From positions 1 through 64,000 of the forward strand of contig JAPEUG010000024.1 of assembly GCA_026025795.1 (NCBI GenBank): a stretch of 64,000 nucleotides of DNA. Reading direction: 5' to 3'. This document shows positions 7,944 to 40,274 of the stretch, in pieces. The stretch is from Thelocarpon superellum (Eukaryota). The position numbers and the translations under genes are program-made. The first letter of the stretch is position 1. Every line of letters begins with the position of its first letter. Below the pieces are notes generated by a model, which did not search any database, was not told the origin of the DNA, and saw nothing but the letters and a program-made list of their open reading frames with translations.

Positions 7944-10900
7944 TCAAGAAGAGACGGCACAGTCAGACGGGCGAATCTCAAGATCGGCAACGAGCTGGCG
8001 GGAGCAGGAGGAAGCGCGGGCGAAGTCGAGCGGGGTACGGCCGTCATGGTTCCGATGGTGCAGGTCGGCGCCCTTGGCGAAGAGGAGGCGGACGAGGTCC
8101 TCGTGGCCCTGCTGCGCCGCGTGGTGCAGCGCCGTGTTGCCCTGCGCGTCCGCGGCGTCGACGACCGCGCCGTGCTTCAGCAGCATCTTCACAATCGTGC
8201 TGCTCCCGTGGCGCGCCGCCTCGTGCAGCGGCGTGAAGTTGAATCTTGCGTCCGTCCCGGCTACTAGCCCGCCAACGGGCGCCTGGTGCTGCAGCAGGAT
8301 TTCCACCGCCCGGTCGCGCCCCAGCCCCGCCGCGGCGTGGAGCGGCGTCTGGTGCTGTCGCGTCGCCGCCGTCATGCTTGCTCCTCTCTTGAGAAGCAGA
8401 TCGAGCGTCACGATAGAGCCCCTCTCGGCCGCGCGGAAGAGCGGCGTCGCGTCGTCCTCGTCCCGCACGTCCATATTGGCGCCCGCGTCGACCAAGGTCT
8501 GCGCGGCCTGCGCGCTGTCTTTCATCGCGGCGTGATGGAGCGGCGTGCGCTGCTGCATGTCGCATGCTTCACAATCGGCCCCCGCTAGCGTCAGCTCTTC
8601 CACGGTCAGCTCGTGGTTTGCCGAGGCCGCACGATGTAGCGGCGTCGCGCCCCACCGGTCGTGGACATTGAGCGGGTCGGAGTCGCTGTACATGCAGAGC
8701 TTGCCGATGAGATGGGCGTGCCCGTACGCGGCGGCCATGTGCATTGCCGTCTCCATGTTGTCGTTGGGCTTGCTCGCAGAGCCGAGCTTTTGCGTGAGCA
8801 GGTCCACCGTGGGCCCATCGCCTTTCTTGGCCGCTAGGTGCAACGGCGTGTTGCCCAGCGGCCCCTTGGTCGATGCGCTCACTCCGGCCTTCAGCAGAAC
8901 CTCCACGATGTCGCACGATCCACTCGCGGCTGCCTCGAGGATCGGCGGCTGCTCCGTCGAGTCGACCGCATTGACGTCCGCCCCGCGCCGTTGGAGCCAT
9001 TTCAGCGTAGATTCTCGTCCCAGGGCCACGGCCCAGAACAAAGGCGTGCGCCCCTTGTTGTCGCGCGGGTCAATCATTGCGCCCCGATCGAGGAGTAGAT
9101 ATATCACAGTGTTGTGTCCGCCTATTGCCGCTCGGTGCACAGCCGTCATTCGTCGACTGTCCGTTGCCTCCAGGTCGGCCTTCAAGTCGCAGAGAGTGGC
9201 AACCGCATTCAGATGACCGTTGCCCGCAGCAACGTGGAGAGGCGACTCGCTCCGAATTCTGGGCCCGTCCACCAGAGCCCCAGCTTTCACCAACTCAATG
9301 ATTCCCAACAAATATCCGATACTGGCCGCATGGTATAATGGAGCCTTGTCGTCCAGGTCAGTAGCATTCAAGTTGGCGCCGTAGTGAAACAGGATCCTTG
9401 CCACGGCTATGTGACTCGCCTGAATCGCCAGATGTAATGCCGTTCGTTGATCCAACGTCCGGCCGTCCACTTCTGCCCCATGCTCAAGCAACAGTTGCGC
9501 CATCTGCGAGTGACCTCCCGCTGCCGCTCGGTGCAGCGGATTGAGCCCATCTGCATCGAAATAGCCCAGCTTCGCACCTTTGGCGAGCAGTGCTCGCGCC
9601 TGGGCAACATCTCCCTTGGCCGCCGCAAGGAGCATCCGCGCCCCCTTTTCCCCGTCTCCGAGCCGACGGGGCTCCCTAGCAGCCTCGCCCTTTTCAGGTG
9701 TCTTGCCGGCGACACCTTTCTCTACGGATGTCTTCGTTTGCATAGCCGGTCGCACCGATGCTTTAGCTGGCCGGTCCAAGCTTTTTGCCCACGCGTTTTT
9801 GATTGGGACCGACGGCGGCGATGCTTCTGTCGCATTACCCGCTATCCATTTCCACACGTGTGCCGTCGACGATGGCGGGGCCTCGGTCGTGTTGTCGGCT
9901 ATGTCCTTCCATATTTTGGAGGTTGGCGGCGGCGGCGGCGGTGCTGCTGTCGTCGTATCTGCTATCCCTTTCCATATTTTCGATGTTGACGATGGCGGAA
10001 TTTCGGTCGCCTTGTCCGCTGTCACTTTCCACATGTTGGTGGTCGGCGGCGGCGGCAGAGACCCCCTTAACGTAGAGTGACGCACCGTCGTACTGAGAGG
10101 AGGTGATGGTGCGGCGGGTGACCGGCCGAGACTTTCGCCGGCAAGATTCCTCGACTTGGTCGTAGGGGGAGGTGGCCGGCTGGGCTTGTCGAAGGGGAAA
10201 CCAGGCGGAAAATCGTCCTTGTCGAAGGGGAAACCAGGTGGGAAATCGTCGCTGGGGAGAAAGGGTGATTTGAGAATGGAGGGAGAGGGGCCCAGCGGAG
10301 GAAGATAAGCCGGCGTCTCAGCGGCTGCCGAAGCCGGGGCTGTCGAAGCCGCGGCTACTGAAGTAGGGACCGCCAAGATGGGGCCCGTCGCAGAGGTGGG
10401 GCCTGTCGCAGATATGGGGCCCGTCGTCGAGGTAGGGCCTGTCGCAGGATATGGCGGTGCTCGAACGGGTGCCGAAGCTGGACCCGCCGAGGGAGAGGGC
10501 GAGGAGACTGCCAGAACCGGTGGCGTTGAATTCTCGGAACGACCGGTCGACTGGAGACGAAGACGTGTCCACGCGGGCGACGCGTCAAACGACCCCGGCG
10601 ATGGCGTCGCGCTCGCGCCACCGGCGGGTCCGAGGGGACCGGTGATCCACGCAGGCAACGATGTGTTGGTAGCAACGGGGGGAGAATAGCACAGGTCGAG
10701 GGCCTGCGATCGTGCACCGGGACGGCCCGGGTCGCCTGGGGTCCATGGCATCGTGACGTCCTCAAAGAGGCCTGCATTTGACATTCGGTAGAACCAGTGT
10801 CGGATGTCATTTTGATAGAAGCCGAGCAGAAACTCTCGCTGTTTGTTGACATCCTGCATGCTCTCGACATGCCGGAAATGAGTCCGACAGAGGTGGCGCA

Positions 10901-13507
10901 TGGCCGTGACGAGCGACCAGTATCGCTGTCTCCCCCGGCAGAACCGGCATTCAGCCAGCGGCGGGATTGCAACGAGGTCGCCCTGGCCCGACGCGTCGAT
11001 ACATATCCACCAATCCTCTTTCGCAGACGGCAGGACGTAGGAATGAACGGACCCGATATGCTCTTCGAGCGCTGGTCGATCGGCGAATCCATGGGCGTAC
11101 AACTCCTCCGTACACCATGGACACAAAAGGGTCGTGATCTCATTGTGGGCGGGAGACAAGTCCCTGGATGGAGACGCTGCAGCAGGTTCGGGCGATGTAG
11201 GACGCACGGCAAGCGTCGCGGTTGGATTCGCGCTCGTCGAGTTTGACGGCGATCCTCCTATGCGTGGCGAACGTCCCCGATGTGTTTCCATCACAGCAAG
11301 GTTTTCGGCCGTGAGGAGGTGGGGAGAGGTTCGGCGTTCTTCCGACGCCAGCGGTGAAGTCAACTTCTCCGGTGTTGGGGAGGGCGAAAGCCGGGATGGA
11401 GAGCGTGGAGCAGGAGAGAGTTGGGGAGAGTGTCTCGGAGAATGTCGGGACGGCGAAGCTTCCGGTGGAGAGCGTTGTCGCTCAGGCAGATCGGGTGATG
11501 GTCCTGCGTCTGGAACCTCTTCGATTGCCGGTAAGGCGGCGAGGCTCCCGCTCTCCTCGAGCAGCTCACGCTGTTGGTCGAGGTACTCCTGCACCGCGGC
11601 ACTCTTGGTGCCGAGGGACAGGATGCTCGACGTGTCCCGAAAGGTGTCGTCGTTCTCCGCATCGTAGACATCGACCGCATCGCGGGGCTATCCCTGGCTC
11701 AGCTCATCGTCTCCGCCGACGTTCCCACCAGGCATGATGTACGTACGAAGAGGCCGGTGCGCCGGCTGATTCGCCCACGCCAGAAATGGCCAGGGAGCAA
11801 GACGAGATCCTCGATGACCTCTCCCTTGGCGAAGCTCAAGAGCTTGGTGCTCTCAGCCGCATGTGCCTCCATGGTTACGGCGAATTGTGTCTGGGCTCGG
11901 CGAACACTTCGACGTTTCACTAAGCGCGAGGATGTCCGTGTCAAGGGGATGATCTCTAAGACTATCGTGACAGTGAACCTCACGCACTTGGAAGCGACCT
12001 CCGACGATCCGTCGTGGCTGAAGATGCCGCCACCTCGTCCGGGGTGGAGGCACATGATTCAATTATCTCCGACAGGGCCCCGACCGTCCTTTTGAATCCG
12101 AGACTGCTGACGTCGTCGAACTTCACCATCCCAATATGATCAGCGGGAATCGTGCGTTGACGCTCATTCGCCGATCCCAGCGTGGCAGAATCATCGTCCA
12201 CGATCTGACTCGTTAGCCTGCATGGCGTGGCAGATGGGGCTTGCACGTACCTTGCCTGTCTTTGAGAAGTTGTGGTCCTCGAGCAGGGTGAAAATCTTCA
12301 GCCGAGGGATGATGGGCGAGAAGTTGAACTGGAGGCGCTCGAGCGTCTCGGACCCCCGATTCAACGCATCCACGACCTTATCATTCTGGTCTTTCAGCAC
12401 CACCTTGGCCACGTTGGAAGCGATGGAGGCCCAGAGTGCCTTGTTGCTCCCGCGATGTGGCGTCCCGGCGAAGATGACGCCTACGGTGGCCACGCCAAGG
12501 GCGGCACCTCGAGGGTTGTGCTCCCGGAATCGCTCGTCGCTTGCCATGCAGAGCGCCTGCACGCCATAGAAGCATCGTTAGAAAGGGGTCTCCTCACTAT
12601 TTTGGTACGATGAGAGGAGATGGGGCCCTGGTAATGATATGGAGACGATGTGATGGTACTAGGGGCCTCCCAAGTATCCCGGGGACAACGTGGTGATATG
12701 AGGCCCCCCAGGTTAGATGTGGAGGAAATAAGGAAGCGAAGGGGCCTCCATCTGTAGGAGCGCAACATCGAGAACAGGGGCGCCTCCAACAAACAAAGTT
12801 GCGGCCATGTCAAAGATGGGAGAGCTCTGAGCGCATCAGCGCGACGTCAAGGGAGCTCACATCTTTGACCACCAGACCACCTAGGCTGTGCGCCACAAAG
12901 ATGATCGGCCTCGTTTTCTGTGGAGAAGGTGCAGTCAGCCAGATGCTCCATAGTCGGCTGATGGGCCTCTCACCTCTTCCCGACCCAGTCGTTCATCCTG
13001 GAGGTCCTCCAGCAAGTTCTTCGCGTGCTGGAAGATGCTGCTCTGACTGGTATTGCCCCCGCCCGGGAAGAAGGTCATGACATCGGCATCGTATCCCCAC
13101 TGTATGGAAGATGAGCTGGCGATCCGCGCGGGAGGACTCCGCCAGGTCAACGTACCGCCATGATGCGCGTGTTGGGAAGCCTGCTGGGCAGCAAGTCACG
13201 CGGCCACACCACGCCGTCCTTGCTCCATGTCTTGAGCCGGTCGCCGCGCAATCCATGGATGAAGACGAGACTGCACTGGTGGATCAGGATAGAGTACTCC
13301 CATGCGCGAGCGTCACAGAGCACGGAGACGCGGCATGATAGAGGGTGTGGGCGATGCAATCGATACTCACTCGGCGTCAATGGGATCTTGTCCGTCCCAC
13401 AGAACCAGCTGTGCCGCGCGTGTTAGCCGTGCGCTCGCTCACATGCTGAGTGAGGCCGGCAATGTGCCGCATCTCCGTGACTGACTTACCATCCCGAGAT
13501 TTGCCAT
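7944..13507 (-). CDS. Multidomain protein: SesB-like alpha/beta-hydrolase, SH3, paired C2H2-like zinc fingers, Pro-rich repeats and a long ankyrin array; about 8 introns in the 5' part
   Basis: Manual splicing gives MANLGM|LVLWDGQDPIDAD|LVFIHGLRG..WPRDLLP..|WGYDAD..|RPIIFVAHSLGGLVVKD|ALC..IFAGTPHRGS..|IVDDDSA..ADHIGMVKF..|SH3 (LSFAKGEVI..FWRG..GLF|PRDAV). This joins in frame to the 7944-11594 ORF, which has many TPLH-type ankyrin repeats. Confidence 0.85.
12584..12787. repeat. Degenerate interspaced repeat array: six copies of an AGGGGCCTCC-like motif at ~39-nt period inside a 304-nt intron
   Basis: Copies at 12584 aggggtctcc, 12621 tggggccctg, 12661 aggggcctcc, 12699 tgaggccccc, 12740 aggggcctcc, 12776 aggggcgcctcc; gaps of 26-31 nt. 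Confidence 0.7.
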
Positions 13508-13958
13508 CAGCGCGGCGGCGTGTCGAGGAGCGACGGCGACCTGAGCGAGAGAGGCCGAGCTCCCTGTGGGCGTGTCCACCGGATGGGACCTGGGCGCTCT
13601 GGTCCAGTGGGGTCGGTCGGCCCATCCCGCCAGCTCCAGCACCCACACGGGCTCAGCCTCGCCGTGGTGGAGGACGGTTTAGCAGAGTTGAGCCAATGAT
13701 CATGCAGCTACTGCAGGTCGACAGGGAAGCGTCTAGGCTGCCGTGCCATTGGCCACGCGACGTCGCCCCAGCCCGGCATCCCAACCATATGCCGGAGGTA
13801 AACCACCCATCGCCATCAGCTCCATCACAATTTGTCATCATGTCCGGGTAGTGTGGTCATCGGTCGTCATCAGACTGATGGGAGTAAAAGCCAGAACATA
13901 CGGTGCGGATGTCTACTCTATGTTGGGTATCATTCGGCCCTCCAACGCCGACATGCTG

Positions 13959-16900
13959 TTATACGGACCCGCTCCAACATCTCTCCCAGGGGTCATAGCC
14001 CAACACCCGTCCTCTTTCGACCTTGGCCAGACATTCCAGCAGTCGCCAGTCGTAGAGGTTGACTTCCGTTCCTGCCAAGCCGATTTGACGCAGATGACTC
14101 CGCAACGCGATCGTCTGCGTCGGCCGATGGCTCTCTACCAGGACGATCCTGCGTGTTCGCGGGTTCAGCCACTGCGCTTGAAGCAAGTCTGCGTCGAGCG
14201 TGAAGGGCACGCCATGCGACGGGAGTAGATCCTCCGTGATGTACGGCGTCTGCGCAATGCACGGACTCAGATAGGCGATGGTGTTGGCCAGGCTACAGGC
14301 CTGTGCCGCATGGCACCGTTGACAGGCACTGAAGGTGACCGTCGTCACGGACCGGCCACAATCCGCCGGAGGGCTCTTCTCCGCCGCTGACTCCCCTGTG
14401 CCGTGGGCTTTCGGCCTCGGCCCCGGCCCAGACCGAGTGGCTTTGTCAACGATTGCGGGACCGTCCTCGGGAGGCGTCGGAAGGATGGAGACAAGACCTT
14501 GCTTCACGATCGCCCCAGACGCCGCAGGAGCCAGGGGAGCATGTGTTGCTGGCGCTATGGGGTGGACGCCGGGAGCTGGAGGTTGACGTCGCTGTGGTGG
14601 AAAGTCGGTCACGTCCCTCAGCGGATCCAGCGCCCGCTTCTTGGAGATAAGCTCGTCGACCACCAGCCGTCTTCGTTTCAAGGAGGCCACCGGGGCCGAC
14701 CCGATCACGGACGAGGGACCAGAGTGTGGATCTTCCCTGGCACCCGAACCTACGGGAGCCGATGGGTCGACATGCTCCTGGCCGGTGAGGGCGACGGAAC
14801 TTTGGCGGCTGGAGCGGCTGCTCGTGGCGCTCCTGTCCGAGCCCCGACGAGAGCGCCGGGTACGTTGGTAGCTCGAGTCACGCACGGCCGCCTCTGCGCC
14901 GGCCTTACCGAGATCTGCCAGCGCCAGTCGCTCGACCCACTCTTGGTGCTCCTGGGACTCGTTCGACTCCGGGGCCATCCTAGCCTGCTCTGCGAGGGCC
15001 TGAAGCTCGGCGAAATCGACGGTGTCGCGGAAGGATCGGTCCCAATGAATCTTCACGATCCGCGGAAAGCGTAAGGTATAGTAGGGTCGATTCGGCAGTT
15101 TATCGAATCCACTCCCCATGACGTCGAAGACAAAAGGTTCCCGGAACAAGACCGTCATCGGACATGGCAGGTCGGGCTCCACCACGAGGTCGCATGCGTC
15201 ATACACCTGGTTCGGGTCAAAGTCCACGGCCCGGAACGCACCCTGCTGGTTGAGGCGAGTGAGGTCCGACGTGCTGATGGCATGGTTGATGGTATCAATG
15301 ACCAGAAATCGCGGCTTAGCTCCGTGCCGGATAACGTCCGCCTTGTTCTGGAGACAGCCCAAGTGGAAGTGTGTCCACTTCAGGCCACGGATGTCCTGTG
15401 CGTGGGGGACATGGGCGTCGAAGCCTGCGCCGACCACGGCCATGTCGGCCGTATCTCCCAGGCCAGAGATATAGTCCTTCTTCAGCTTGATCCAGAAGCA
15501 TCGTCGGTCCTCCCGATCGGCGGTGAAGGTGAGGTAGGGCTGATCACAGGGTTTCAGGACATAACCTTCCCATCGCTGCGTGATGGCCTGGGCAAACGCG
15601 TTTGTGAGCGTGGACTTGGCGCTCCGCGAGGCACCATCGAGTCGCTCTCGTGAGGCTAACGATGCCCTTCCAGCAATGGGCTGGACGAGATCCTCGAGGC
15701 GTTGAACGCGCTCGCTGTACGGTTGTGCGAGCGTTGACACGTCGTCCAAGAGCAAGAGGTCGAAAAAGACGACCATGAGATGTTCATGGGCGTGAGGCCT
15801 GGCTTGAGTCAGCTGCGACGTGATGCCCAGTCCGGAGCCGGAGTCTTACAGCGAATCGTTCATTGTCCCCAGAAAACGCCCGGAACGGGACACGTGCTTT
15901 CTCAGCTTGCAGAAGGCCACCGTCTCATTGCATTGGTCGTCAAAAACCACCAATTCCCCTTCGAGGATGCACCGTTGCCGGAATCGGCGGTGGGGCCGAT
16001 CCAAGCGGAGGCACTCACGAATGCTCGCATGGACGTTTTTCCGATCGGTCGTGGAATCTTTACCACTCTTGGAGAAGATCTGGATCCACGACGGACGCGA
16101 CAGATCCACATGGACCTGGCAATATTCGCCGTCATACTTCCGCTCCATACTGAACTGCCTGCCGGCCACCATCTGCAAGCAATGCTTGACGGATCGCGCC
16201 TTGCAAAACATGGGCCGGCCCACTTTGACGCCAATCTGTGGGATCAGTGCTCGCGATGCATCCTGCCGACACTGATATCGTTCTTGCGCCGTGGCTGGTT
16301 GGGGCGGCATGCCGCCTAGGACGGGTCCGCGCAGCAGCGGGACGGCAACCTCGATGTGATCGTGTACTTTCAGCACGTCCGGCAGCAAGAAGTGATACAG
16401 GCGCAGCACGAGCGGCTCGGAAATGACGACGGGCTGATAGGCCTTGAGCAGCATCCGCGTAAGCCATTTGGCTTCGCGTGACTGGAGCCGGAGGAAGAGC
16501 GGCGACAAGATGCGTTCAACTGGGTCCGTTTGCACCCGGGCTCGCACCGCAACGCTGGAAAAGTGGCAGCGCGCGGCCAGGTCGGCCAGGGCTCGGTCGA
16601 TCTCTTCCACCGTGACCTCATGCCCGGACGCGGGGATGGCCATCTCCGCCTGCCGCTGGACCCGCTCGACGCACGCGCCCAGATCTCCATGGCCCGGAGT
16701 CTCCCAGGCGAGCAGACATCGTCGTCGGGCGACGGGCAAGCCCAAGACCCGGCCCACTACCTTGGCCAAGCTCTTCTCGCGGAGACCGTACACCCGGTCC
16801 GTGCGCCGTTCCGGCAGGAAGGCGGAGAGCACGGCGACGCCCGAGGTGTCGGCCGCGTCAATCCGTCGACGATGGCTGCGGAACCAGTGCTCGATGGCGC

Positions 16901-17859: not shown

Positions 17860-17979
17860 GGTTACATGGTCCACGGGTACATGGTCCATGGGTACATGGT
17901 CCACGGGTACATGGTCCACGGGTACATGGTCCACGGGTACATGGTCCACGGGTACATGGTCCACGGGTACATAGTCCAC
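17860..17979. repeat. 15-nt minisatellite (GGGTACATGGTCCAC) x8
   Basis: Eight near-identical units read directly. Confidence 0.95.
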
Positions 17980-18622
17980 GGTGGCATCCAGTCCACGATG
18001 GAGAATTTCATCCTCCTGCTCCTTATCTGCGGGATATGCGTCATGAGGGGAATCGAACCTGCAAAAGTGCCTCGAAGGCGGCCGTCTCATTCACATTCCT
18101 TTACGGATTTAGACGGAGAAGAGGCTGATGCGGCATCTCAGAGACTCCCTCCTACCATTGAAAGTCAGTATCGATATACAGACCAGATTGCGATTGCTGC
18201 ACGTCGGGGCCCCACTGTACCCCACCAGGACCATCACCATTGTACCATCATCCTAGTAATTTCATCCACATGACACGGACGGGGACGGACGGTCAGACAA
18301 TCTTCTGCTATCTGCGGTCTGCTGTCTGCTGTCTGCTGTACCGCTACCTACAGTCTACCATACGTCGTACCAGACAAGGTCGCATTAAATGGGTCGGAAG
18401 AGAGAAGGCGGAGTGCCAGACGATCTCGGTCGAAGGAGGAAAGGTAGAGGATATATGTCGAGAACAGAGGGAGAGATGGTGAGGGGCGAGGGACGAGGGA
18501 CAAGGACAAGGACATGGTGACGCGGCTCAGGAAGAAGGCCGACGGGGCAAACGGCGAAGGAGCATGCAAAGCAAGGAGACAAGGAGACCAAGAAGACGAC
18601 GCCACGCTCAGAGGTTGCCGGA

Positions 18623-36969: not shown

Positions 36970-39655
36970 ATGGGTGTGCCGAGTACGTAGCTGGCTGGCA
37001 CCGACTCCGTCTTCAGTTCCATCACTTCCACCCACTGACAGCTGCATAGTCTTCAGAAGCAGCCCCGATGGCTCCGACTCTCGCCCGCTTCTCAACTCCC
37101 TTCCCCCCCCCACTCGCGCCCCCGGCGCCACCACATCGTCCGGTCCCAGCGCCTCCTCAGCGAACGCGCCCGCTGAGGCCGACTCCCAGCCGGTCGTGCA
37201 GGGCCGTCCATCATCCCAGGCCACCGCCAGCACCCGCTTACCCGAGACCCCCGCCGCATTCCCGACCCTGGGGTTGGCGCGTCCGAGCATCGGTCGGATC
37301 GAACAGACCCCGCGCTTTCCTTATCCCCCGCCCGCACCACGAGAGGTGCGCCATACTGCGGACGACGTCACCCACTTCACACCGGATCCCCGGACCGGCC
37401 TCATCCACGAGGAGCGCCGACGCGCCGACACCGGCGAGTGGGTCCTGTCGGATGGGCGGCCGACACATCAGGCTCGTCTCGAGGCTCGCCCGCCGGCCTT
37501 TGTCGGACGGATCGTTCCCCAAGCAGGACAGGTGCGTCGGGAGGAACGACCCCTGCACCAGCGTGAAGGCCAAGTCTTGTCGTTGCAAGAGTTCTTGGCG
37601 GAGACGGCCAATGCCCCCAGCCCGCGCGACGAGTCCCCCGCCGCTCCCATGGACCCGGCCAGCACAGCCAACCGAGAGCCAGCCTCACACTATGAGCTGC
37701 GCCACCACCAGGTGATGGCCGAGCACACCGGCACCATTCTGTACGGACGAAACCCTCTGATGGATGACACCATGCCTCCATCGGAAGATGAAAGTGAGAG
37801 TGGCGGTGACGAGGATGACGATGACGAAGAAGGCGAAGAGGGCGAGGATGGCGAGGAGGGCGAGGAGGGCGAGGAAGGCGAAGAGGGTGAAGAGGGCGGA
37901 GAGGGCGGAGAGGGCGAAGAGGGCGAAGAGGGCGAGGATGGCGAGGAGGGCGAGGAAGGCGATGAAGAGGACGACAACTCCTCTGCCTCCGTTGATGATG
38001 GGGAAGAGCCGTCGAGTCGCGCCAGCACCGTGGAGACCTACCCGTCTTCGGCCCACGCGAGCGCCGGCGATGCTGCTCCATCGTCCCACAATGAAGGTGC
38101 TGGCGATGCCGTCCTCCCCTCGAGCCGCACCGGCACGGCGGTCACACCCACCGTTTCCGCTCGACGGAGCGAGAGCGCGATATGGGCTCCCTCTCACCAT
38201 TTGCGCGACTCAGTCCAGGACGGCAACACGGCCGAGGAATATTCGCCGTGGAGATATGCTGCGCTCGAGGAATATCTACACACTCCGTCGGGCATGATGG
38301 CTCGAGGGCTGAGCCGCTTCCAGCGGCGCCTCGACCTGCTGGCGCACGAGTTTCGCACCCTGGGCCTCGAGCGGATGGACTTGGTCCGCCAACAAGCGCA
38401 CCTGCTCGCCACGGTCGGGGACGACGCCAGTTCCTCATTCTCCATCGATGATTTTCCGCGCATCATGCAACGCGAGTCGTACCGCCGCCTGCGTCGGGTC
38501 GGCGACTCGCTCGTGGCGCTCGACTCGCGCATTCAGGTGCTCCGCAATACGATCCGCCCGCCCATGTCGTCGTCGTCGTCGTCTGGGGAAGGGGACCAGG
38601 GATCCCTGCACGCCGAGCTCGGACGCTTGATGCCCACGCAACTCGATGCCGAGACGCAGCGGATTCTTGCCTCGCTCACCCTCCTCGGTCGCATACCCAT
38701 CCACGACATCGATTGGCTCGAAGCGTTCCGGGTGATCCGCGAGGCGCAGCGCCGGCGATGGGATGCGCAACACCCCAACGGACCGCGCATCTCTGGCTCG
38801 GCCGACCTTCCCGACGCCACGCTGAGCCTCTCCTTAAGCGCGCGAGCCAATCGCCGGGCCACCAACCTGGATCAGGCCGTCCAATCCGGTGCCCCTCGCG
38901 GTCCTCGTCGTGATGCCGCGACCTCGGGTCGACCCCAGCTGGGCTTACGGCTGACGAATGACTCTGTGCCCTTGGCCGCGACCTCCACGGCGCTCCCGGC
39001 AGCCACCTCCCCACACCGTGCCCTTGCGGCGCCCGGTGCGGCGGGGGGTCTGGCACGCGGCGAGGCGGTGCCGTCGGCCGCCATGGGGAACGCAGGCCTG
39101 GGTCTCGCTCATCCGGAGGGGGCCCATCCCCTGAGCCAGATGGCGTGTTTGTCCCCTGAGGCCGATTCGCACGAGGCGATTCATGATCTATACGTCAATG
39201 CCTACCACTGGCTGGATCACGCCGGCGAAGTCGGCCCGCAGCGACTCCAGACGCAGCTGGTGGTGCAACGTCGGATGGACCGACTCATCGAGAATGAGGC
39301 GCAGCCGGCCGAGGTGGACTCTCCTCCTGGCTCCCCCATGTCCGTCGAGGCTCCTCACCTCGACCATCTACCGTCCTTCCTCTCGCAGCAGCTTCCCATG
39401 AGCGCGCAGACGGTGGGACGGATTCTCGACCACCATGGCCTGGCTCGGCCTCCGTGGTCGATGGAGATCGACTCCCACCCGGCTCCTGGCTCATTAACGC
39501 CACCCATGCCATCATCGACGACGCAACGGGTCTTCCGTGAGGCCGACGCCCGCATCTCTCGCGAGCTGGCCCTCATGCTGGATGGAGCCTCGTCGGCGCT
39601 CGCTCCAAGCGTTCTCGCGGACGCCCCAACGTCCCCGCCAACCTCCGCTCCATGA
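36970..39655 (+). CDS. Hypothetical, largely disordered protein with a (GEE)n acidic tract; intron 36983-37049
   Basis: ATGGGTGTGCCGA|GTACGT..CTGAC..TAG|TCTTC gives MGVPIFRSSP, in frame with a 2.6-kb ORF; no recognisable domain. Confidence 0.65.
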
Positions 39656-40103: not shown

Positions 40104-40176
40104 TTCTTTCTTACCTCTTCCCCATTCCCTTCTTTCTTTCTTTCTTTCTTTCTTTCTTACCTCTTCCCCATTCCCT

Positions 40177-40217
<41 letters not shown>

Positions 40218-40237
40218 TTTCTTTCTTCTTTCTTTCT

Positions 40238-40272
<35 letters not shown>
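40104..40272. repeat. (TTTC)n pyrimidine tract with a duplicated CTTACCTCTTCCCCATTCCC unit
   Basis: Direct read. Confidence 0.9.

Positions 40273-40274
<2 letters not shown>

Follow-up and report, generated by a model that had tools for sequence, protein, structure and literature searches.

A decayed periodic array, probably an old minisatellite, in an oversized intron of a DUF676-like ankyrin gene of Thelocarpon superellum

Relation to described repeat arrays

Jeffreys-type minisatellites share a GC-rich core, and variation in copy number between individuals is the hallmark of a live minisatellite. A gene intron of Botrytis cinerea carries the minisatellite MSB1; a literature search for the MSB1 minisatellite in Botrytis returned no match. 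CRISPR loci combine nearly identical repeats of ∼23–50 nt with mutually unrelated spacers. Where a fungal intron is oversized, hosted snoRNA genes or clusters are often the cause. In Colletotrichum lentis, 39-nt and 23-nt minisatellite arrays in the rDNA intergenic spacer consist of perfect repeats whose copy number differs between isolates, and the authors who described them raised a small-RNA idea for these repeats and left it untested (PMC4560493).

Intron 5 of a minus-strand gene in the window analyzed here (the whole 64-kb stretch of DNA) carries an array that resembles GC-rich minisatellites (Jeffreys-type VNTRs) in that its units, tens of bases long and arranged head to tail, share a better-kept GC-rich core, and in that it lies in noncoding DNA of a gene and has no known product, but it is too decayed for detection by Tandem Repeats Finder and comprises only six to eight units. 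The 39-nt unit length and the fungal source also liken it to the C. lentis array; the C. lentis arrays are perfect and lie in an rDNA spacer, whereas the present array is decayed and intronic (PMC4560493). Its likeness to CRISPR and other repeat-spacer guide-RNA loci goes no further than the way in which a conserved word alternates regularly with less conserved sequence of near-constant length, and the array differs in its 10-nt degenerate repeat, its weakly homologous spacers, its fungal host, and its position in an intron. The locus resembles intron-hosted snoRNA genes in being an unusually long intron of an otherwise short-intron gene. However, intron 5 has no Rfam match below E = 2.6, no visible box C/D or H/ACA pattern, and no excess folding, and no snoRNA family was matched in Rfam.

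Intron 5 and its host gene

Intron 5 (12557..12860, minus strand) is a 304-nt phase 0 intron of the form GTGAGC...CTAAC(20 nt)CAG, placed from the sequence and from tblastn of P0005. Residues 99 to 118 of P0005 align to 12920–12861 and residues 119 to 246 to 12556–12173; because residues 118 and 119 fall on the two borders (12861 and 12556), no residues are lost at the junction. The junction between GGLVVKD and ALCMA aligns to the relative's protein free of gaps, and AHSLGGLVVKDALCMA is continuous across it in P0003, P0005, P0009, and P0012. These alignments uphold the borders exactly as an earlier reading made from the sequence alone (the sequence-only reading) had placed them. Two further points of that reading, the oversize of the intron and its position directly after the nucleophile-elbow exon, are likewise borne out: the five remaining resolved introns of the gene measure 81, 100, 56, 56, and 46 nt (compared with P0001), and exon 5 (12861..12917, minus strand; 57 nt), read from 12917 to 12861, encodes KTRPIIFVAHSLGGLVVKD with its G-x-S-x-G nucleophile elbow. 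Exon 6 (12251..12556, minus strand) follows with 102 codons (ALCMASDERF...KTGK) and matches P0001 at 100%.

In two metagenomic relatives, the codon boundary between VVK(D/S) and AL is likewise interrupted by an intron, measuring 59 nt in L001 and ∼52 nt in L002; intron 5 is ∼5 times its usual length. The excess of intron 5 over the L001 intron is 304 − 59 = 245 nt, close to the ∼232 nt (12584 to ∼12815) in the six units described below. Of the sequencing runs listed as containing the stretch, none is an RNA run, and a single one, possibly its source, covers it in full. Among the runs X2, X3, X6, and X7, no contig joined across intron 5. X2 contributed one 151-nt contig (12671–12821) with one difference and no listed insertions or deletions, and X3 contributed two contigs, 12305–12455 with two differences and 12542–12692 with four, again with no listed insertions or deletions. 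In an X3 contig at low depth (depth 2), a G>A change falls at 12586, inside core copy 1. X6 and X7 represent two further organisms of the same study, and their contigs follow exon 5 but turn into unlike sequence from 12854–12864; two X6 records do so, the median number of loose letters being 213. The X6 and X7 contigs cover exon parts only, with zero intron cover, and prove nothing about the intron.

The host gene encodes a DUF676-like region followed by SH3, DUF7896, and ankyrin repeats. Relatives that contain exon 5 score near the cut-off (20.3 bits) of Pfam DUF676 (PF05057, putative serine esterase), with P0005 at 22.1 and P0009 at 23.4, and P0012 (20.2) and P0003 (19.4) just under it. Features of a DUF676-type alpha/beta hydrolase are thus seen as PF05057 in relatives and as the G-x-S-x-G elbow, AHSLGG, in exon 5. 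Single exons of the window gave no Pfam match because they are too short, and P0001, which lacks exon 5, gave no Pfam match to PF05057. Neither NACHT nor NB-ARC was found by Pfam in P0001 or in the 1247-aa ORF; NACHT (PF05729) occurs, together with WD40 families, in P0013, a distant relative at 38% identity. Of the "immune-type hydrolase" of the sequence-only reading, the hydrolase half is thereby supported by near-cut-off DUF676 scores in relatives, but NACHT is confined to the distant P0013 and absent from the host gene. By tblastn, the window holds no paralogue apart from the host gene itself. Exon 5 is missing from the public protein model P0001, and its skipping would keep the reading frame (57 nt). 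The absence from P0001 of the 19 residues that include the catalytic serine is probably an annotation error, one that would mislead into classing the protein as an inactive hydrolase.

Core copies, periodicity, and spacer similarity

Six cores of ∼10 nt lie on the plus strand of intron 5, with start-to-start spacings of 37, 40, 38, 41, and 36 nt. Copies 3 (12661..12670) and 5 (12740..12749) are both exactly AGGGGCCTCC, and copy 1 (12584..12593; AGGGGTCTCC) matches at 9/10 and, on the transcribed strand, is followed closely on its 3′ side by the CTAAC branch site. Copies 2 (12621..12630; TGGGGCCCTG) and 4 (12699..12708; TGAGGCCCCC) are weak, at 6/10 and 7/10, respectively, and copy 6 (12776..12787; AGGGGCGCCTCC) is exact apart from a 2-nt GC insertion. 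Core starts at 12584, 12621, 12661, 12699, 12740, and 12776, and the distances between them, agree with those given previously, and the description of a quasi-palindromic core recurring every ∼38–39 nt is upheld by the spacings. Six cores are an overstatement in part: copies 1, 3, and 5 are clear, but copies 2 and 4 match at only 6–7 of 10 positions and copy 6 requires its 2-nt insertion. The exact word AGGGGCCTCC occurs twice in the 64-kb window (128 kb counting both strands), both times in intron 5 and 79 nt apart; beside this pair lie a one-mismatch copy 77 nt upstream and the copy with the 2-nt insertion 36 nt downstream. At one mismatch or fewer, AGGGGCCTCC has five plus-strand matches in the window, of which three are in intron 5. 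Survival of the core may be owed to its lack of CpA/TpG, the target of repeat-induced point-mutation type changes.

Autocorrelation of intron 5 reaches its maximum at lag 38 (z = 3.94), a value attained by 0.9% of 1000 dinucleotide shuffles when the maximum was taken over lags 5 to 129 (p ∼0.009), and the periodicity proposed from the sequence alone is therefore significant against shuffled introns. Echoes were observed at lags 19, 59–62, 77–79, 97, and 116. Tandem Repeats Finder at a minimum score of 30 reported no array in 11000–14500, and the periodic head-to-tail self-similarity that marks a minisatellite is therefore present in decayed form only. When lags divisible by 3 are left aside, 57 of 2548 sliding 304-nt windows, falling in about five loci including intron 5 itself, reach the z of intron 5. 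Masking of the six cores lowered the ungapped autocorrelation to z = 2.06 at lag 38 (band p ∼0.10) and to z = 0.5 in the 76–80 band. Judged by the shuffle test and the sliding-window frequency, the periodicity is genuine though modest, and it is carried mostly by the cores.

Similarity between the spacers is weak and patchy. When the six whole units were aligned in pairs, all 15 alignments scored above their own shuffles (z = 1.0–3.6), and among spacers in 78-nt register, alignment against shuffles gave z = 2.8 and p = 0.009 for A–B, p = 0.07 for A–C, and p = 0.13 for B–C. The likeness of alternate spacers and the ∼78-nt higher-order unit suggested earlier thus find support in the A–B pair, but not in the 78-nt band once the cores are masked (z = 0.5). 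A second, weaker conserved block (12604..12698, plus strand) was detected with 12-mers at three mismatches or fewer at lags 38 and 40, and it occupies three successive spacers 38 and 40 nt apart (ACGATGAGAGG at 12607, ACGATGTGATGG at 12645, and ACAACGTGGTG at 12685). The 5′ part of the intron (12788..12860, plus strand coordinates) contains GAGCTCTCCCAT and the 5′ splice site GTGAGCTCCCTT (transcribed strand), and may tentatively hold two more very decayed units, as suggested by alignment A2 and by the 12804/12841 pair at lag 37. Inclusion of these two units lowers the spacer-similarity statistic: the spacer-only similarity sum gave p = 0.03 for units u2 to u7 and p = 0.15 for all eight proposed units. 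Mismatches between units were examined for an excess of transitions, which would point to true homology or to a process of the repeat-induced point-mutation type; none was found, and the signals for spacer homology are weak for this reason.

In simulations of a 10-nt block under uniform decay, the observed core conservation had P = 0.002–0.03 at 45 to 55% identity and 0.10 at 60% for three 78-nt units, and P = 0.001–0.09 at 40 to 50% identity for six 39-nt units; the core was chosen post hoc, and significance varies with the assumed background identity. The sequence-only reading had set its array apart from a repeat diverging uniformly across core and spacers, and this distinction holds to a degree, with the cores somewhat better kept than under uniform decay (P = 0.002–0.10, depending on the background identity assumed), so that some constraint on the core may exist. 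Factors of the Msn2/4 type bind AGGGG, the stress-response element. Intron 5 contains four AGGGG words where 0.3 are expected from the window, and at least four on either strand occur in 0.8% of 304-nt windows; several AGGGG/CCCCT words thus lie close together, as in a stress-response-element cluster. All AGGGG words are on the nontranscribed strand within intron 5, some 650–850 nt beyond the start codon and thus outside a promoter.

Origin of the array and rival explanations

The sequence-only reading had favored a guide-RNA-type array, in which short conserved repeats with unique spacers of constant length would be processed from the excised intron. Regular spacing of 36 to 41 nt from start to start and quasi-palindromic cores visible in the sequence are consistent with such an array, but the repeat measures just 10 nt, with two to three of the six copies degenerate, well short of a near-identical repeat of >20 nt, and the spacers are not independent of one another, with neighbors sharing the second block and spacers A and B aligning at p = 0.009. 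Predicted folding of intron 5 was no better than that of shuffles (z = −0.72 for the RNA strand and −1.21 for the plus strand), leaving the RNA strand without a structure signal, and an Rfam search of 12300–13100 on both strands returned three chance-level matches (E = 2.6–4.7), none of them a snoRNA and none at E ≤ 1. Comparison of each spacer with the surrounding DNA found no second copy in the 64-kb window, the best stray matches being 11 to 13 nt with E ≥ 0.23. Contigs of the two other organisms are unlike beyond the exon border, and no processing gene is evident next to the intron, whose neighbors are the ankyrin part of the host gene and a gene with a DNA-ligase domain. The short degenerate repeat, the related spacers, the lack of excess folding, and the lack of an Rfam match make a guide-RNA-type array released from a spliced intron extremely unlikely.

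Two other explanations concern chance and function. Without any tandem duplication, a GC-rich word may have recurred by chance in a purine-rich, skewed intron, with the eye supplying the weak copies; the silence of Tandem Repeats Finder at the locus, spacers that are close to random by ungapped tests, the scanning of 64 kb for oddities with 57 of 2548 windows reaching the same periodicity z, and the 6–7/10 matches of the two even copies all agree with this. Chance is nevertheless a doubtful explanation, since no more than two exact copies of the 10-mer exist in 128 kb, both here, 79 nt apart and flanked by the one-mismatch and indel copies, since the shuffle test was corrected over 125 lags (p = 0.009), since spacers A and B align (p = 0.009), and since the excess of the intron over its homologues approximates six units. 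Alternatively, the cores could be functional cis elements in phase, acting either as transcription-factor sites in DNA or as elements of the intron RNA (GGAGGCCCCU on the transcribed strand) that aid or regulate splicing and exon 5 inclusion. Consistent with this, conservation is higher in the cores than in the spacers (P = 0.002–0.10 under uniform decay), the periodicity is largely lost once they are masked, four plus-strand AGGGG words stand against 0.3 expected, and exon 5 preserves the frame when skipped, as it is in P0001. Against it, only three to four of the six copies are well kept, the AGGGG words are on the nontranscribed strand within an intron rather than in a promoter, the low-depth X3 contig (depth 2) carries G>A within core 1, and adjacent cores pair in the minimum-free-energy fold, yet this fold is no better than that of shuffles; the significance of core conservation also hangs on the assumed background identity and on a core picked post hoc. 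Function of the cores in phase is accordingly rather unlikely. A more specific form of the same idea would have the cores, as GGAGGCCCCU pre-mRNA words or AGGGG DNA sites, set the removal efficiency of the long intron and hence the inclusion of the catalytic-serine exon, switching between an active and a catalytically dead putative DUF676-ankyrin protein, and this we consider very improbable.

The inflation of intron 5 is probably that of an old, decayed minisatellite in a conserved short intron, as argued by the lag-38 periodicity, the weakly related spacers, the short intron shared with relatives, the readiness of the window to form tandem repeats, and the lack of any sign of an RNA product; the sequence-only reading had listed this explanation as an alternative, and it is now the favored one. 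Speaking against it are the silence of Tandem Repeats Finder, the loss of significance once the cores are masked, the eight-unit spacer statistic (p = 0.15), the missing transition excess, and cores kept better than under uniform decay. The starting point would be an ancient intron at a conserved codon boundary, normally ∼50–60 nt long, in which a unit of ∼38–39 nt was duplicated head to tail, probably in steps of ∼19, 39, and then 78 nt. Nested tandem duplication of this kind would be expected to give the echoes at 19, 77–79, 97, and 116. The copying is likely to have involved the GC-rich quasi-palindromic cores, through replication slippage or unequal exchange between them. The array would now comprise six recognizable units, perhaps eight, with decay near saturation and with the GC-rich core and the second short block remaining. 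We infer that the array is removed with the intron on splicing and does not itself function as RNA. What it chiefly brings about would be an unusually long intron after the 57-nt nucleophile exon, and this length may explain the omission of exon 5 from the public gene model.

Understood as a decayed minisatellite, intron 5 would add one more example of intron growth through an old tandem repeat, here in a fungal genome that readily forms such repeats, and would matter little for biology at large, with wider interest only if the cores proved to control exon 5 inclusion. It would also illustrate that five-fold growth of a short conserved intron is possible without a transposon. Derivation of the array from an 18/36-nt repeat in the coding part of the host gene (10378–10454, also with GGGGCC) was considered and rejected, the local alignment giving a nonsignificant p = 0.068 and ranking ∼28th of the 200-nt windows across 64 kb. 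The window as a whole forms tandem repeats readily, with Tandem Repeats Finder returning 47 rows over the whole 64 kb (units including 15, 33, 36, 46, and 120 nt) and three tandem arrays in the coding part of the host gene.

Borders and size of intron 5

The exon/intron structure of the hydrolase-ankyrin gene was read off the minus-strand sequence of the window. Exon 1 (MANLGM) is followed by intron 1 (81 nt, 13489-13409), exon 2 (LVLWDGQDPIDA), intron 2 (100 nt, 13370-13271), exon 3 (13269-13156; LVFIHGLRGD...RIMA), a 56-nt intron 3, exon 4 (13099-12974; WGYDAD...LGREE), and intron 4 (56 nt, 12973-12918). The 57-nt exon 5 (12917-12861; KTRPIIFVAHSLGGLVVKD) encodes the catalytic-serine elbow and is separated by intron 5 (304 nt, 12860-12557; GTGAGC...CTAAC-20 nt-CAG) from exon 6 (12556-12251; ALCMASDERF...KTGK), after which come intron 6 (46 nt, 12250-12205) and the remainder of the gene. 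In tblastn, residues 99 to 118 of the protein relative P0005 align to 12920-12861 with 90% identity and residues 119 to 246 to 12556-12173, and four relatives (P0003, P0005, P0009, and P0012) exhibit one unbroken stretch, ...RP(I/V)IF(L/V)AHSLGGLVVKDAL..., across the junction. The intron borders proposed by the sequence-only reading are therefore exact, with zero coding residues hidden within the 304 nt.

The description of intron 5 as oversized also held, the five other resolved introns of the gene measuring 46 to 100 nt. When metagenome contigs were scanned using an exon-6-region alignment, 109 pattern matches gave four loci. L001 (57% identity) carries an intron at the identical codon boundary (AHSLGGLVVKD|ALHMSHEH; 59 nt, GTAAGT...CTAG), and L002 (52% identity) one of ∼52 nt in the identical place by a frame-preserving parse, indicating that the intron position is old and its usual size ∼50 to 60 nt. 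L003 has no intron at this site; its elbow (L003:2700-3000) reads AHSPGG rather than AHSLGG, stop codons interrupt the downstream match, and the locus is possibly a pseudogene. No elbow was found upstream of the exon-6-region match in L004. The excess length of intron 5, ∼245 nt, roughly equals the content of the six repeat units (12584 to ∼12815).

Among the sequencing runs listed with matching contigs, none of them an RNA run, only X1 covers the whole stretch, and it may be the source of the window. X3 contributes one low-depth contig (12542-12692) with four differences, including G>A at 12586 within the first core, and X2 one contig (12671-12821) with one difference; no insertions or deletions relative to the window are listed for either. 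Contigs from two runs on other organisms in the same study, X6 and X7, match exons 4, 5, and 6 and carry unlike sequence past the exon-5 border (for X6, two records, whose loose letters ahead of 12859 number 213 at the median). These contigs may be paralogues, and show only that, as far as contigs extended, the intron 5 sequence is not shared at 80% likeness.

Periodicity, cores, and spacers

Counting both strands of the whole window, the exact core AGGGGCCTCC is found at just two places, 12661 and 12740, with further copies at 12584 (AGGGGTCTCC) and 12776 (AGGGGCGCCTCC, exact apart from a GC insertion). Core starts are spaced 37, 40, 38, 41, and 36 nt apart. The proposed six-copy core stands in its spacing and in these four exact or near-exact copies, and is weaker at 12621 and 12699, where 6/10 and 7/10 positions are matched. 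Tandem Repeats Finder at score 30 reported nothing at intron 5. Autocorrelation of the 304 nt reached its maximum at lag 38 (z 3.94), a value attained by just 0.9% of 1000 dinucleotide shuffles (lags 5-129), with additional peaks at 19, 59 to 62, 77 to 79, 97, and 116, which approximate multiples of 19.5. The same z was reached by 57 of 2548 sliding windows (lags not multiples of 3), which group at about five loci, intron 5 among them; a sliding window starting at 12576 gave z 4.98. The periodic pattern of intron 5 is real and modest.

A comparison of cores with spacers, proposed to detect the uniform divergence of a plain decayed repeat, gave a mixed outcome. Arrays were simulated under uniform decay, and the frequency with which a 10-nt block is kept as well as the core was recorded. 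For three 78-nt units this probability was 0.002, 0.008, and 0.03 at 45, 50, and 55% identity and 0.10 at 60%; for six 39-nt units it was 0.001, 0.018, and 0.09 at 40, 45, and 50%. The core is nominally better kept than the rest, by a margin that hinges on the assumed background and for a core picked after looking. Several comparisons favor related spacers. In the 78-nt register with cores removed, spacers A and B align with z 2.8 (p 0.009), A and C with p 0.07, and B and C with p 0.13. Each of the 15 pairwise comparisons of complete 39-nt units outscores shuffled sequence (z 1.0-3.6), and the spacer-only sum gives p 0.03 for units u2 to u7. A second block is common to three consecutive spacers (ACGATGAGAGG, ACGATGTGATGG, and ACAACGTGGTG at 12607, 12645, and 12685). 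Other results go against relatedness. The spacer-only sum for all eight proposed units gives p 0.15. With cores masked, the ungapped lag-38 signal falls to z 2.06 (band p ∼0.10) and that at 76 to 80 to z 0.5. Mismatches between units display no transition excess. The spacers appear not to be independent sequences, which argues against a repeat-spacer design.

Origin of the array

The guide-RNA-type array with which the sequence-only reading led is not supported, regular spacing being the one point in its favor. Both strands of 12300-13100 were searched against Rfam by E-value, which returned three matches (E 2.6-4.7), far under gathering scores, and no snoRNA. The transcribed strand folds at -89.6 kcal/mol as compared to -86.1 ± 4.8 for shuffles (z -0.72; plus strand z -1.21); neighboring cores pair in the minimum-energy fold, as quasi-palindromes should, without excess stability. 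No second copy of any part of intron 5 was found within the window, the top stray matches being 11 to 13 nt (E at least 0.23). An alternative raised in the same reading, an old decayed minisatellite, is the most economical explanation and the probable identity of the array. A ∼38 to 39-nt unit, perhaps itself a doubled ∼19-nt unit and later doubled to ∼78 nt, would have multiplied in head-to-tail tandem within a short, conserved intron, the likely mechanism being unequal exchange, or slippage, from one GC-rich quasi-palindromic core to another, and the array would since have decayed nearly to saturation. When the transcribed strand is read, the core GGAGGCCCCTT is similar to the real 5' splice site GTGAGCTCCCTT, and the last unit holds a perfect GTGAGG 47 nt ahead of the acceptor. 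These hints are no more than suggestive of a duplicated piece whose start lay at, or close to, that splice site; adding the two 5' units weakened the statistics.

Tandem repeats are abundant in the window (47 Tandem Repeats Finder rows). Young, well-kept arrays at 17863-17981 (15 nt × 7.9, 97% matches), 37825-37962 (9 nt × 15.3), and 40104-40273 (46 nt × 3.2, overlapping a TTCT microsatellite) indicate that the region makes minisatellites readily. Three coding repeats on the minus strand of the host gene, at 9813-10056 (120 nt × 2), 10185-10250 (33 nt × 2, DDFPPGFPFDK twice), and 10378-10454 (18/36 nt, GPTSATGPISAT...), sit in the disordered linker ahead of the ankyrin repeats. Derivation of the array from the 18/36-nt repeat, which also holds GGGGCC, was rejected, as the relation was not significant. 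The array most probably represents a GC-rich intronic minisatellite in a decayed state, and behaves as one. An intronic minisatellite is known in Botrytis cinerea. Minisatellites with a 39-nt unit in the Colletotrichum lentis rDNA spacer are perfect repeats of varying copy number (PMC4560493); the likeness is one of unit length, and the array described here is intronic.

Two further explanations retain some probability. The cores may be functional and phased, either as AGGGG sites or as an intronic splicing signal affecting inclusion of the frame-preserving nucleophile exon, consistent with four AGGGG where 0.3 are expected (at least four in 0.8% of windows), the nominally better kept core, and the skipping of that exon in P0001, the public protein model of the host gene. 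Pure chance recurrence would fit the failure of Tandem Repeats Finder to report an array and the low similarity among spacers.

Exon 5 in the public model and host protein domains

The most useful by-product is that P0001 appears to lack the catalytic-serine exon. This 1578-aa model ("MAG: Ankyrin-1 [Thelocarpon superellum]") is 100% identical across exon 6 and agrees with exons 1 to 4, 6, and 7, but reads ...LGREE|ALCMA... without exon 5, which is intact in the window DNA and present in P0003, P0005, P0009, and P0012. The relative P0002 likewise lacks exon 5, and P0004 has a garbled junction at its site (AHSLGALNAGVYPQSLCMA). The omission reflects either faulty annotation, caused by the length of intron 5, or real skipping of the exon, which would leave the reading frame intact.

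Single exons of the host gene are too short for Pfam matching. Among the relatives containing the elbow exon, DUF676 (PF05057, putative serine esterase; cut-off 20.3) scored 22.1 bits in P0005 and 23.4 in P0009, and just under the cut-off in P0012 (20.2) and P0003 (19.4), supporting the hydrolase part of the label "immune-type hydrolase". Neither NACHT nor NB-ARC was found by Pfam in the host protein, and NACHT and WD40 families occurred only in P0013, a distant relative (38% identity); "immune-type" is an analogy. A weak variant-SH3 match (SH3_9 and SH3_2, E ∼3e-4, below Pfam cut-offs) lies at P0001 residues 288 to 337 (11700-12000, minus strand), with the DUF676-like domain on one side and the long linker on the other, and DUF7896 at residues 557 to 610 is followed by a long ankyrin array. 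This architecture of DUF676, SH3, DUF7896, and ankyrin repeats without NACHT is unusual. The upstream neighbor, ∼450 nt from the hydrolase-ankyrin start codon, is a long open frame (13959-15845, minus strand) with an ATP-dependent DNA ligase domain (PF01068, E 1.9e-10).
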